DNA of 17,650 nt from a virus (lineage: Duplodnaviria > Heunggongvirae > Uroviricota > Caudoviricetes), in IMG/VR virus record IMGVR_UViG_2540341031_000012; one strand, written 5' to 3'. Position 1 is the first letter of the stretch. Every line of letters begins with the position of its first letter. Shown one piece after another: positions 1 through 6,000 of the stretch. Made by a program: the position numbers.

Positions 1-3000
1 ATGACGAAGAAAAAAGCACATAAACCTGGTTCAGCGACCATCGCGCTTAACAAGCGCGCCCGTCACGAATACTTTATCGAAGAAGAGTTCGAAGCGGGAC
101 TTGCCCTGCAAGGCTGGGAGGTTAAATCCCTGCGCGCAGGAAAAGCCAATATCAGCGACAGCTACGTCCTTCTGCGTGACGGAGAGGCATTTCTGTTTGG
201 CGCTAACATCACGCCAATGGCCGTGGCCTCCACGCATGTGGTGTGCGATCCTACCCGTACCCGCAAGTTACTTCTCAACCAACGCGAACTGGACTCATTG
301 TACGGTCGCGTCAATCGAGAAGGCTATACCGTAGTGGCGCTCTCCCTGTACTGGAAAAATGCCTGGTGCAAAGTGAAAATCGGCGTCGCCAAAGGTAAAA
401 AACAGCACGATAAACGTTCAGATATCAAAGAACGCGAATGGCAGGTGGATAAAGCACGTATCATGAAAAACGCCCACCGTTAAACCTGCACTCCAATTAT
501 TGACCAGTTCCTCACCGCGCCTCCCTCTCCGGCGGCGCGAATGAACATCTTATTGGCTATCACATCCGACACAAATGTTGCCATCCCATTGCTTAATCGA
601 ATAAAAATCAGGCTACATGGGTGCTAAATCTTTAACGATAACGCCATTGAGGCTGGTCATGGCGCTCATAAATCTGGTATACTTACCTTTACACATTGGG
701 GCTGATTCTGGATTCGACGGGATTTGCGAAACCCAAGGTGCATGCCGAGGGGCGGTTGGCCTCGTAAAAAGCCGCAAAAAATAGTCGCAAACGACGAAAA
801 CTACGCTTTAGCAGCTTAATAACCTGCTTAGAGCCCTCTCTCCCTAGCCTCCGCTCTTAGGACGGGGATCAAGAGAGGTCAAACCCAAAAGAGATCGCGT
901 GGAAGCCCTGCCTGGGGTTGAAGCGTTAAAACTTAATCAGGCTAGTTTGTTAGTGGCGTGTCCGTCCGCAGCTGGCAAGCGAATGTAAAGACTGACTAAG
1001 CATGTAGTACCGAGGATGTAGGAATTTCGGACGCGGGTTCAACTCCCGCCAGCTCCACCACTTACTCTTCCGGATACGTCCGGACAAATCCTGAAAGCCC
1101 GCATGGCACAAGCCCTGCGGGCTTTTTTGTGTCTACTGTTGTCCGAGGATATCCAGCTAAATCCAGTGATTATTGGTATACGTTTAGGTATACGGTAGGA
1201 TGTATACCTAAAGGCGTATACCAATTCATGAAGGAGCGGCCAAAGTGGCAAGAACGACACGCCCCCTGAGCAACACAGAAGTTCTGCGCGCTAAAGCGTT
1301 AGAAAAGGATCTAACGTTGCATGATGGCGATGGTCTTTTTCTGCTCGTTAAAACGAACGGTAAGAAGTTATGGCGTTTCCGTTATCAACGTCCAGCAACA
1401 AAGCAGCGAACAATGATAGGGCTAGGTGCCTTCCCCGCCCTTTCACTTGCTGATGCCCGACGGTTAAGAGCGGATTATCTTTCCTTGTTAGCCAACGGAA
1501 TTGACCCGCAAATTCAAGCTGAAATTGCAGAGGAACAGCAGCAAATCGCACTAGACAGTATTTTTTCAACGGTCGCCACTAACTGGTTCCAGCTTAAAAG
1601 CAAAAGCGTTACCCATGATTACGCGAAAGACATTTGGCGTTCACTAGAAAAAGATGTATTCCCTGCCATCGGTGAGATCCCTGTTCAGCAAATCAAAGCC
1701 CGAACACTTGTTGAAGCCCTTGAGCCAATCAAAGCTCGTGGGGCGCTAGAGACCCTTCGTCGTCTGGTGCAGCGCATTAACGAGATAATGATTTATGCCG
1801 TAAACACTGGTCTGATTGATGCAAATCCAGCATCTGGTATTGGGATGGCTTTTGAGAAACCTAAAAAGCAAAACATGCCGACGCTCCGGCCAGAGGAATT
1901 ATCGAAGCTGATGCGTTCTTTGATTATGTCTAATCTGTCTGTTCCGACTCGCTGTCTAATTGAATGGCAACTCCTGACCATGGTGCGCCCTTCTGAGGCC
2001 TCCGGTGCTCGGTGGGCAGAGTTCGATCTCGATTCAAAGTTCTGGACGATTCCAGCAGAACGGATGAAGGCCAAGCGTGAGCACATTGTTCCTCTGTCTC
2101 CACAGGCATTAGAAATTCTGAAAGTAATGAAACCAATCAGTGCTCATCGTGAACATGTTTTTCCCAGTAGAAATGCCCCTAAACAGTCAATGAATAGCCA
2201 AACTGCTAATGCAGCACTCAAACGCATTGGTTATGGAGGGAAATTAGTTGCTCATGGGTTACGATCCATCGCAAGTACTGCGCTCAATGAAGCCGGATTT
2301 AATCCTGATGTAATTGAAGCAGCACTTGCTCACTGTGATAAGAATGAAGTTCGAAGAGCATATAATCGATCCATTTATCTAGAGCAACGCATTACATTGA
2401 TGGAATGGTGGGGTAATTATGTTCATAATCAAAAACTCATATCGTACAGTTTAAATCATTGCTAAAAAACATCATTCAAATACACAGAAACGAAATAAAA
2501 ACTGCACAATGTTAACTTTTCAAAGATGGCTCAATAAGAGCCATCTTTAATTTTAACGTTTAGTCACTGTTATGCTCGTGCTGAAAGGAGGATATGCTGA
2601 AGTTGAATGCACTTCATCATAAACTGCTACCACATTACCACTTTCATCTAATTGATGATAAACATACTCATCATTATCGCGTCCTCTTTTTAATCCTTTC
2701 CACTCCATTGATACTTGTTCAATAGTATGGTTATCTGGAATTGAAAATTTCTTTCTAACATTATCTGACATAATTAAAGCCCTTTCATTTTTGTCTAATT
2801 AAAATATCTTTAACATTCGACCATTCATTTAACAAACCAATATTCACATTACCATCTGCAACTCTCACATTAATAACCTCCGGTCTTAAGCCTGATAATT
2901 CATGAAGAAGCCTTGAGCTTTCAATAGAAAATGCTTTGAGAGAGTTAAATCCAATTATCACCCGATTAAAATACTGCTCACTTATTCGCTGAACACCTAA

Positions 3001-6000
3001 AGTCAAATCATTTGGATCCAAACATATCTGTATTGCGAATTGCCCATCCATTATGAACACAGCGTGTACATTATTTTTAAGAAACTCAGCTCTAACTTCT
3101 TGAAGATCAGTTAAAATATAAATTAAAACATCATTCTGCAAAAAAGCAACCAACGCCTCTTTTTCTAGGGACAAAGTAAAAGGATATGCAGTCCCCCAAC
3201 TTTCCTCAGGAGTAAGCGAGTGTATTAGTGTCGACTCCCCAATATCTATACCAATACAATTTTCCATTGCGTTTTCTAGTTGCTTTTTAGGCAAGTCAGT
3301 TCTTACACAAAAATAAACAAGCCCCCTTTCAACCTCTTTACTAGCATATCCATCAATGAGGGATTGTTTTATTAAGAAGTTGATATCCTCATAAAAGGTA
3401 ATTTCTTCACCTTTATTTTCAACCCTATATGCATCCAATCCATTTTTGAAAGAAGGTGCATAGTCATTTCTATAAAACTCTGATAACTTATGCAATTCAA
3501 CCAATTGTCTGCTAACTCTTGCCCTAGGTTTTTTTTGCATTTTTCTCTTTACCTCAATAGGGACAGGATCACTCATTCCTAACGCACAAACATCCCCATG
3601 ACGTATGACATTAGTAATATCACACAAAACCACTGGAATATTGCATCGCAGCCCCATTTTGAAAACCTTCCACTCTTGCCTGAACCCCTCTTTTCCTGAA
3701 ATAAAACCTGCATCTTCCTTTACATTATAGTCATCATCATAATATAGAACTTTCAAATTAGAGTTCGGAACATAAATATTTGCAATGCCATCCCCGAAAA
3801 ATCGCCACGTGACTATCAATTCTTTCCTAGCACTCAGCCTAGAATCTATTTTTTTAAGAATTTCCTTTATACCTTTTGACTCTACCTTATTTAACCTCCC
3901 ACTTCCTTTTATTTTCTTTAAGCGCGCACGTGCTTTCTTAAGTCGGTGTATTCTCTTTTCTTCCTTAACTATTTTTCGTATTAAGAACTTATGAAACTCA
4001 AGCAATAAATAATAATTACCCGGTTCTTTTTTTAAATCACTTATAAACCTTGATGCTTCAACAAAACCACATTGATATTGAGGAAAACGCATGAGCCACC
4101 CCGTTACATTTCACTGATAATCATAGAAAAACTCATAGTGAGGTGCAGGTCAAGCAACAATTTTGAAAATTGCGTAGTTCCCCCTCATAATTTACTTATT
4201 GGGTTTTTATATACACTTAAGATAAAAAAATCTCAGCTAAATTCGTAGATCGTTTCTGATTCAGATGCATTGGCAGTTTATGGTCACCACAGGAAAGAAT
4301 ACTTCAGGTTAATATCTATAACCGAAGTGAGCGGTTTCAGAAGCAACAGAATCGGCATCATACCCACTATCCCCCCCCCTACTCAGCTCTGTGATACGTT
4401 CAGGCCGTAAAAAAATAAATAAACAGTTAATGCATGCGCGCGGTGCTTTCCCCGCCTCGCCCGCCCGCTTTGCAGGGCGGTTTTAATGCAGTTGCACAGT
4501 CACGCTCAGGCCGCGCCGGGAATGGCGCGGTCTGCAGAAAATGAGGCAGGGAAACGCATGCAAAGCCATGCACCTTATCGATGCATGGCTTTTTTCAGTA
4601 AAAACGGGCGGATTTTCGGGGAATTTTACACAGACTGACGTGATGCCAGTTGCGCACTTTTACGCGAAAAAATCATGTTCTGCGCAGGGGTGAATTTTTC
4701 ACGGCTGTCATCCACCGAAGCCGCGTCAGGCCTGAATCCGATGGTCGTTAAAATGTCGCTATCCTGTGCGGAATAATTAATTTTTTCCCCCTTCGCAAGC
4801 CAGGACAGGAGGGCTTCACGCAGGGCATCTGTGGCACGCTGTATGGCACAGTTTCGGGCAATGGCCGTCAGCTCACTGTAGCCCATCAGCTCCGGTGCCA
4901 GTGCGGCCGCCAGTACTGTGCCGTGCTGCTGCATAAAATCATTCAGCCGGTCGCGGATGCTGATGTGCTGAACGGCTTCATGCGAACGAATATAACGACT
5001 GGCGGCCTGATTCACCTGCCATTTTCTGACTTCGATAATATTGCGTAATTCGTCCAGGCGACTGACGTTTCTGCCTTCTCCTGACAGAAGCCGCAGGTAT
5101 TCCTGTTCGGCCGCTGCCAGCTCATTTTTGCGTTGCAGCCATGCTGCTTTGTTATTCTGACAGGTGTCAAAGGCCTGCTGTAAGGCTGTGCTTTCCATCG
5201 TTATCTCTTTCTCATCATGCTGAAGAATAAAAATACGGTGTGCGGCGACGGCCGGTGTTAACCGGCAGCCCTCATTCCAGACGCAGCGAATATGATTGTG
5301 TTTTTAACCGTACTGGCGGCAGTTCCTGTTTTTCATGCAGGCATTCTGCCAGTTCGTCCGGTGTGACCGGGCGGACAATGAAGCGGTTGATGGTCTGAAG
5401 CGTTTTAAACACCAGACCACAGCCCGGATCCGTGCACACATAAAAACGTTCGGTGACTTCCTGAGACAGACGCCGCGATGTTCTTGACAGTGCAAGGCCT
5501 TTACATCTCCGACAACAATATCCGGTAACAAGCATTCTTTTCGGGCGCTTCATGCTACCGGAGGCTGACGTCAGTGAATCGCGGTATCTCTGTTTGCCTG
5601 AAATGTATTCCATTCCTGAATCTTTACAGTCAGAGAAAAAGCTTTCACTCGCTTCAAATGTCGCAGAGCAATAAATATTCCGGCACTGTGCAATCATTAT
5701 CTTGGTGCCATCGTCCATGAAATGTGCGCGACGGGTGTGAGCAACATGTCCACACGACGGGCAGTAAATCATGACAGCAGTCCTCTGGCCTTAAGCTCTG
5801 CTCCCTGCTGGTCTATTTTGTCCTGCCACACCTTGCGCTGTGCCGGTGTGCCTGCCACCTCATAATCCATGTGCGGGAGTGTTGCCGCTGACAGTCCGGT
5901 CAGCCGGAGAACCGGCTCGCCGGTGAGGCTGATTTGCATCTGTTTTATTTTCTGTTCCAGCGATGATTTCACCTGCTGCATGACAGCTTTATCGGGTGCG

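Follow-up and report, generated by a model that had tools for sequence, protein, structure and literature searches.

The stretch of DNA analyzed here, IMG/VR virus record IMGVR_UViG_2540341031_000012 (17,650 nucleotides [nt], referred to as the window), is a segment of Escherichia coli chromosome with a P4-like satellite integrated at ssrA. Its cargo is a pair of genes that encode proteins of 435 and 72 amino acids (aa). We propose that the 435-aa protein, encoded by an open reading frame (ORF) on the minus strand (2785-4092 including the stop codon, with an ATG start at 4092), is a stand-alone, metal-dependent DNA nuclease of the PD-(D/E)xK type and the effector of an uncharacterized anti-phage system carried by the satellite, a reading to which we give a probability of roughly 0.55. 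This reading is built on a real and conserved gene, an invariant candidate motif, a predicted topology that agrees with it, and a locus known as a defense hotspot. That the protein contains a PD-(D/E)xK core is, taken by itself, likely. The motif, the topology, and the place of the gene in the genome are our grounds for inferring nuclease activity and the role of a defense effector.

A candidate PD-(D/E)xK core in the 435-aa protein

The first-pass annotation of this DNA had pointed to a weak PD-(D/E)xK pattern formed by VVLCDITN, which begins at residue 154, and PIEVKRK, which begins at residue 178. The second half of that proposal stands, in that E180 and K182 (E180-V181-K182 codons at 3547-3555, minus strand, as for all codons below) are the proposed (D/E)xK element, but the proposed metal-binding aspartate is D167 (GAT, 3592-3594) rather than D158, based on alignment to the catalytic Asp of the Holliday junction resolvase Hjc. 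Across 148 homologues, which reach down to 23% identity, no column other than those of D167 and E180 is invariant, and K182 is retained in 147 of the sequences. D167 aligns with Hjc D42 and stands in HGD-VCA, 13 residues before E180 (GD-x12-ExK), a spacing equal to that between D42 and E55 in Hjc, where E55-M-K57 is the counterpart of E180-V181-K182. The usual E...D...ExK...Q pattern is completed by E140 (GAG, 3673-3675), which lies in the first core helix, aligns with Hjc E12, and is Glu in 142 of the 143 sequences that have a residue there, and by Q196 (CAA, 3505-3507; 146 of 148), in the helix after the ExK strand; the catalytic signature residues E140, D167, E180, and K182 are all present and conserved. 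D158 (GAT, 3619-3621; 146 of 148) does not align with the Hjc catalytic Asp. It belongs to a family-specific D-[IL]-T-N-x-[IL]-R-x-G-D loop, in which T160 (146 of 148), N161 (142 of 148), and R164 (144 of 148) are also conserved, and may still matter.

An AlphaFold (AF2) model of the full-length protein (predicted local distance difference test score [pLDDT] 85, predicted template modeling score 0.84) has three domains. Residues 1-107 (3772-4092, minus strand, as for the other two) form a basic helical N-terminal domain (helices 4-22, 27-63, and 69-107) with a conserved E45 and an FGD101G motif; residues 126-228 (3409-3717) form the PD-(D/E)xK-like core; and residues 229-400 (2893-3408) form a confidently modeled alpha/beta domain, with conserved E255, G257, Y260, P304-F-x-L307, and R377, for which no detectable relative was found. 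Fold prediction, which had been suggested as a check on the nuclease idea, favors it: the motif residues fall on a helix-strand-strand-strand-helix succession (135-149, 154-156, 168-170, 177-179, and 191-208), which is the PD-(D/E)xK order. E140 lies in the first helix, D167 at the start of the second strand, E180 and K182 at the end of the third, and Q196 in the last helix.

The strongly Lys/Arg-rich character that the first-pass annotation had ascribed to residues 20-95, with nucleic acid binding or a coiled coil as the suggested roles, is evident in the composition. The segment holds 17 Lys and 8 Arg against 1 Asp and 7 Glu (33% K+R, net charge +17), as compared with 11.8% K+R and a net charge of -7 for the 340 residues from 96 to 435 (permutation test on the maximum over windows, p = 0.00085); the basic stretch quoted earlier, KKARARLKK...SARKE, corresponds to residues 52-91. 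This character is kept in the family, with a median of 25.5% K+R and a net charge of +9 for the aligned segment of 110 homologues (net charge of at least +5 in 88%), the rest of each homologue being slightly acidic. The N-terminal basic helices may bind nucleic acid. As for the coiled coil, the segment is indeed modeled as helical, in a long hairpin or bundle, but a free coiled coil is disfavored. When the N-terminal helices are left out of the model, the pLDDT of the core drops from about 90 to 44-70 and that of the C-terminal domain stays at 85-95; the loss of confidence in the core suggests that the helices pack on it, and in the model the nuclease module seems to include them as an integral component.

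Profile comparisons pointed to Hjc. A core profile (residues 126-228, 62 sequences) searched against 177,635 PDB sequences returned Sulfolobus solfataricus Hjc (1hh1) as the third best match, at an E value of 1.2 that is not significant, with 78 profile positions in register and E140 on E12, D167 on D42, and E180-x-K182 on E55-x-K57. With hhalign, the core scored 28.9 against an alignment of five Hjc sequences (nominal P 1.6e-4, probability 50%), a thin template, as the word-index search gave only 6 close Hjc relatives; the best score among the controls, 40 column-shuffled templates and one reversed template, was 17.4. Against a single Hjc sequence the nominal P was 7e-4, and single YraN and Mrr_cat sequences, which as single-sequence templates are low-powered, gave no signal (P 0.13 and 0.44). 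Pfam Hjc was matched by neither the 435-aa protein nor 113 of its relatives at E ≤ 1. Judged by sequence, the protein shares a core pattern with Hjc but is not a member of its family.

Other catalytic signatures were not found, in line with the earlier annotation: a motif scan of the 435-aa protein revealed no Walker A, no nucleotidyltransferase G[SG]...DxD, and no real HEPN motif. R-x5-H and hhhhDD were each matched once, at residues 195 and 115, respectively, and in isolation; R195 and D119 are conserved in a 37-sequence alignment, H201 not. No Pfam, NCBIfam, or PADLOC model was matched by either cargo protein, including at E ≤ 1 in PADLOC-DB v2.0 (2023), a release older than DS-1 to DS-42 and than Crouga, Bandua, Aernus, Toga, and Reve. 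The sole family match of the 435-aa protein was PHROG 14906 (function unknown; E 2.7e-38). Matches to TRIP13_N (435-aa protein, E 0.21) and Colicin-DNase (72-aa protein, E 0.031) were judged to be noise. The full-length profile matched only a designed tetratricopeptide repeat protein and an adenovirus protein among PDB sequences, both through the coiled region, and Foldseek found no match for the 435-aa model in PDB. Distant family members, 3 of 113, had sub-threshold Pfam matches to Card1_endonuc (E 1.3e-3 in one member) and PDDEXK_9, and there were further weak matches to Cdn1, NucC, and MspJI. At E ≤ 1 the 113 relatives matched 78 families, and SduA_C was not among the 25 matched most often.

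These searches leave some room for the view that the D/E/K residues do not form a nuclease site at all, and that the protein has some different activity or serves in DNA binding or as a scaffold without catalysis, with a resemblance to Hjc that is convergent or due to chance. Every fold and profile score is sub-significant, two-thirds of the protein lacks a recognizable relative, and conserved polar residues (E45, D101, D210, R223, E255, and R377) are unaccounted for by a simple nuclease model. We nevertheless consider it unlikely, as D167 and E180 are invariant, K182 follows two residues on, all three occur on the expected secondary structure elements with the spacing seen in Hjc, and the shuffled controls scored far lower.

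The cassette in P4 and P2 hotspots and its 72-aa partner

The slot between cos/psu and int is the cos-adjacent defense hotspot of P4 (Rousset et al. 2022, PMC9122126). In the window, the cargo lies in this slot and varies among otherwise similar elements: the psu-side flank, whose conserved sequence starts at about 4411, is present in more than 2,200 of 5,426 complete E. coli genomes, and the cargo in only six, with a seventh partial. The two ORFs form a block of 33-37% G+C, as compared with about 50-60% in the rest of the satellite. Upstream of the 435-aa ORF, at a distance of 351 nt, is the 19-nt sequence GGCGAGGCGGGGAAAGCAC (4443-4461, minus strand; exact, unique, and with 0 occurrences expected by chance), which we take to be the P2/P4 cos cohesive end and the conserved edge of the hotspot.

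Related cassettes extend this distribution beyond E. coli and beyond P4. A variant with 86% identity, from a cluster with members in Enterobacter, Klebsiella, Citrobacter, and E. coli, was seen in five places, four of them in P4-like satellites with the order psu-435 aa-72 aa-int; the remaining one has an IS1 upstream of the pair and no called psu. Homologues with 57% identity, accompanied by a 72-aa gene with 75% identity, are located in P2-like prophages between gpA/dinI and the portal gene Q, which is the P2 hotspot; these are a Pantoea copy (L002) and a copy from Logan assembly ERR1192018 (L007). The Pantoea locus has a cos-like site at 7638-7656 (plus strand, 3 mismatches), 345 nt upstream of the homologue, and comparison of the 350-nt upstream regions of the P4 and P2 copies revealed only cos in common. 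Thus, related cassettes (57% and 75% identity) occupy the cos-adjacent hotspots of both P4-like and P2-like elements, which have been reported to almost never share defense genes (Moura de Sousa et al. 2026, PMC13586616).

The family of the 435-aa protein is much larger. A word-index search gave 44 relatives in Enterobacterales, Pseudomonas, and Cupriavidus, and a hidden Markov model search of 1.84 billion cluster representatives (50% identity) gave 859 clusters at E ≤ 1e-3, of which 362 reached E ≤ 1e-30. The best 150 of the 859 are mostly about 400 aa long with a match beginning near residue 100, and therefore appear to have the same architecture. Scanning one genome per species yielded 80 loci in Gamma-, Beta-, and Alphaproteobacteria, Acidobacteriota, Chloroflexota, Planctomycetota, Bacteroidota, Myxococcota, Nitrospinota, Campylobacterota, and Streptomyces. 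No neighboring gene was conserved across 78 other genomes from many phyla; the immediate neighbors there included GajA/Old-type ATPases (3), Shedu SduA_C (2), LmuB (2), integrases (3), and a RES toxin. Distant members were located at the end of a P2-like prophage in Enterobacter asburiae, beside PIN_12 and zeta-toxin genes in Pseudomonas, and, in Cupriavidus, in an integrase island with Mrr, HNH, and ADP-ribosylglycohydrolase genes. One Joint Genome Institute (JGI) record labels a family member 'Holliday junction resolvase'.

The 72-aa ORF (2553-2771, minus strand) begins 13 nt downstream of the 435-aa ORF and ends just short of a perfect 13-bp hairpin (2520-2550; -22.4 kcal/mol, z = -7.1, 0 of 200 shuffles equally stable) that separates the cassette from the convergent int and is probably a bidirectional terminator; a consensus terminator scan missed it because the minus strand lacks a T-run after the hairpin. 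On sequence grounds the ORF is a real gene, with a ratio of nonsynonymous to synonymous substitution rates (dN/dS) of about 0.07 relative to the Pantoea copy. It is very uncommon (only four other clusters among 5.8 billion proteins) and occurs also at 7001-7219 in loci L012-L014. In Enterobacter hormaechei the two proteins are naturally fused into one of 512 aa (P0217), with the linker ...KKIERALIMSENIRKK...

This arrangement raises the alternative of a toxin-antitoxin-like or fused-sensor abortive module, in which the 72-aa protein would restrain or activate a 435-aa nuclease toxin and infection would release it, with cell death or arrest as the outcome. Consistent with such a module, the two genes are closely spaced and co-oriented, with one strong hairpin after the pair, the pair is kept in P4-like satellites of four enterobacterial genera as well as in P2-like prophages of Pantoea, purifying selection acts on the small gene, and the fusion exists. 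Fused toxin-antitoxin defense proteins, such as CapRel SJ46, are known and offer a parallel to the 512-aa protein. However, most of the family lacks the partner, which was not found at the Enterobacter asburiae, Pseudomonas, Cupriavidus, and L010 loci and was found only in an Enterobacterales clade with at least 57% identity, and no neighbor is conserved in the 78 other genomes. In the ERR1192018 locus the 72-aa gene (L007, 9339-9554) has no ATG and an in-frame stop, due to either partner decay or an assembly error, and the 444-aa homologue upstream is intact. A plasmid-like contig of Yersinia enterocolitica has the small gene without the large one, upstream of a 279-aa gene. Because the partner is missing or broken at many loci, it is better viewed as an accessory of one clade than as a general control; the small gene is not kept across the family as the partner in a type II toxin-antitoxin system would be. 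An abortive module is therefore an improbable account of the family, and we take the 72-aa protein to be an accessory particular to its clade that may serve in regulation or sensing, rather than a general antitoxin.

The window has the order smpB-ssrA-int-[72 aa]-[435 aa]-cos-psu-delta-sid...alpha. smpB (1-483) and ssrA, the transfer-messenger RNA gene (698-1060), are followed by the P4-type tyrosine integrase (1245-2465, plus strand), which adjoins ssrA and forms one flank of the hotspot. The other flank is psu, the polarity suppression gene (4626-5198, minus strand; Pfam Psu, E 1.8e-87, and RefSeq annotation), and beyond it are delta (5272-5772), a sid-like 266-aa ORF (5769-6569), and the alpha primase gene (9116-11458). 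Matches to isrK, the c4 a1b1 target, and the C4 antisense RNA at 7380-7665 (plus strand), all at Rfam gathering scores, confirm a P4-type immunity region. The Rfam scan gave no match within the cargo, and a promoter scan found no convincing minus-strand sigma-70 site upstream of the 435-aa ORF. The 100%-identical match, in E. coli TUM9757 (L001, 9370-12239), has the gene adjoining delta split by an IS21; as the 266-aa ORF is unsplit here, the window comes from a different strain with the same cargo. Further along, an AIDA-type autotransporter gene is apparently broken (12109-15493, minus strand), with a 1009-aa passenger ORF that has 12 AIDA repeats (12464-15493) and a separate 108-aa ORF (12109-12435, minus strand) that holds only the end of the beta-barrel domain. 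Outside the satellite, a further uncharacterized accessory gene of about 33-35% G+C encodes a 457-aa DUF5507 + DUF5508 protein (16277-17650, minus strand) and starts exactly at the window edge.

Proposed function

In the mechanism we propose for the satellite protein, the PD-(D/E)xK core would cleave DNA in a divalent metal-dependent manner at a site made up of E140, D167, E180, K182, and Q196, to which the family-specific D158-x-T-N-x-x-R loop would add. The basic helices, packed on the core, would supply DNA binding or oligomerization, and the C-terminal domain, with the 72-aa partner in its clade, would determine the timing or the target of the nuclease. The infecting phage would then be blocked by cutting of phage DNA or of DNA structures that form as the phage replicates. 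Activity, substrate, trigger, and defense phenotype are all predictions of this scheme. A bolder version, which we regard as doubtful, would make the family a new, phylum-spanning class of single-protein immune nucleases in which the Hjc-like core reads DNA structure (branched intermediates of replication or recombination, or cos-type ends made by infecting phages) rather than sequence or modification, the basic helical arm and C-terminal domain act as sensor and gate, and the 72-aa protein is, in Enterobacterales, a detachable, sometimes fused, trigger-binding module.

The gene appears in earlier surveys. The cargo is listed in Table S1 of Rousset et al. (2022, PMC9122126) as 'hypothetical + hypothetical, WP_001774582 + WP_001774581', and DefensePredictor gives WP_001774582.1 a log-odds score of 5.22, above the strict cutoff of 4, with the label 'Predicted novel defense gene' (DeWeirdt et al. 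2026, PMC13092281). In the same study, PD-(D/E)xK nucleases were the commonest effector class among recently validated systems, accounting for 13 of the 31 validated systems grouped by familiar defense domains (42 validated in all). When eight unannotated P4 cargoes were picked at random, six of them conferred protection against phages (Moura de Sousa et al. 2026, PMC13586616). We found no record of a defense test for this cassette, and accession-based searches returned no papers.

Several points weigh against the proposal of a defense nuclease. The placement of D167, E180, and K182 was judged by the order of secondary structure elements and not by spatial distance, and the Hjc hypothesis was picked after the data had been seen, so that the pairwise P values are optimistic. 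DefensePredictor has a validation rate of 45% (PMC13092281), and defense by the 435-aa protein is a prediction only. Many of the immediate neighbors in other phyla are housekeeping genes. Finally, tblastn against 50,697 deposited phage genomes gave no match, despite PHROG 14906 and the copies in P2-like prophages; the carriers seem either not to have been sequenced as virions or to be confined to prophages and satellites.

That the protein is instead a housekeeping recombination or junction-resolving nuclease of the element, acting for example on branched DNA before packaging, would suit its nearest detectable relative, a Holliday junction resolvase, the JGI label on one member, and the position next to cos in both P4- and P2-type elements, but this is very improbable: the cargo occurs in only six or seven of the 5,426 E. 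coli genomes as compared with the more than 2,200 that have the psu/cos flank, and P4-like satellites therefore do not need the gene, which moreover sits in a variable, low-G+C cargo slot, has no match in the phage genomes searched, has many relatives in non-phage islands, and encodes a protein scored as defensive by DefensePredictor.

Relation to known systems

Of known proteins, Hjc (PF01870; 1hh1) most closely resembles the core of the proposed nuclease, with G-x3-E ... (G/P)-D-[IV]-x-A ... [IL]-E-[VM]-K-S in register, a 13-residue D-to-E spacing, and the same helix-strand-strand-strand-helix order. Hjc, however, is a single domain of about 120-145 aa, whereas the protein studied here has 435 aa with a basic helical N-terminal domain and an unrelated C-terminal domain; the family DxTNxxR loop replaces the S-G-S-K-R-K loop of Hjc; and, unlike archaeal Hjc, the family is bacterial, resides on mobile elements, and does not match the Pfam Hjc model. 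Card1/Can2-type, NucC, Cap4, HamA, and Mrr/type IV restriction nucleases share the active-site pattern at superfamily level, but the cassette lacks a CARF, SAVED, or helicase partner, has no cyclic-nucleotide synthase in its vicinity, and gives no significant sequence or fold match.

In organization, a parallel is Shedu (SduA), a single-protein defense nuclease in which a PD-(D/E)xK (DUF4263) domain is combined with N-terminal domains for regulation or sensing that vary. Like Shedu, the 435-aa protein stands alone, belongs to a family of proteins of about 400 aa that lacks a family-wide partner, joins a putative PD-(D/E)xK domain to non-catalytic domains, and is found in variable islands, where two members of its family adjoin SduA_C genes. 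It differs from Shedu in matching neither Pfam SduA_C nor the PADLOC Shedu models, in having the core central rather than C-terminal, and in its other flanking domains. With the cargo of the P4 psu-int and P2 gpA-Q hotspots (old, tin, PARIS, Rst systems, and HEC candidates), the cassette shares the cos-adjacent slot, low G+C content, rarity, and exchangeability; unlike the catalogued cargo, it matches no PADLOC v2 model, including the HEC models.

The locus itself had been catalogued before, with a defensive role predicted for it, and an effector of the PD-(D/E)xK kind is unsurprising. What is new is the apparent Hjc-like core with named residues, a three-domain architecture in which two domains are unrecognizable, the extent of the family in numbers and across phyla, the partner gene together with its naturally fused form, and the presence of the cassette in both P4 and P2 hotspots, which bears on the exchange of defense genes between these elements. 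If the proposed reading is right, a widespread family of defense nucleases (at least 859 clusters at 50% identity) goes unrecognized by annotation databases, with two uncharacterized domains and a small partner protein left to dissect. Its value thus lies in a new architecture and in concrete predictions, which turn a 'hypothetical + hypothetical' P4 entry into a testable mechanism with D167, E180, and K182 as the named catalytic residues.

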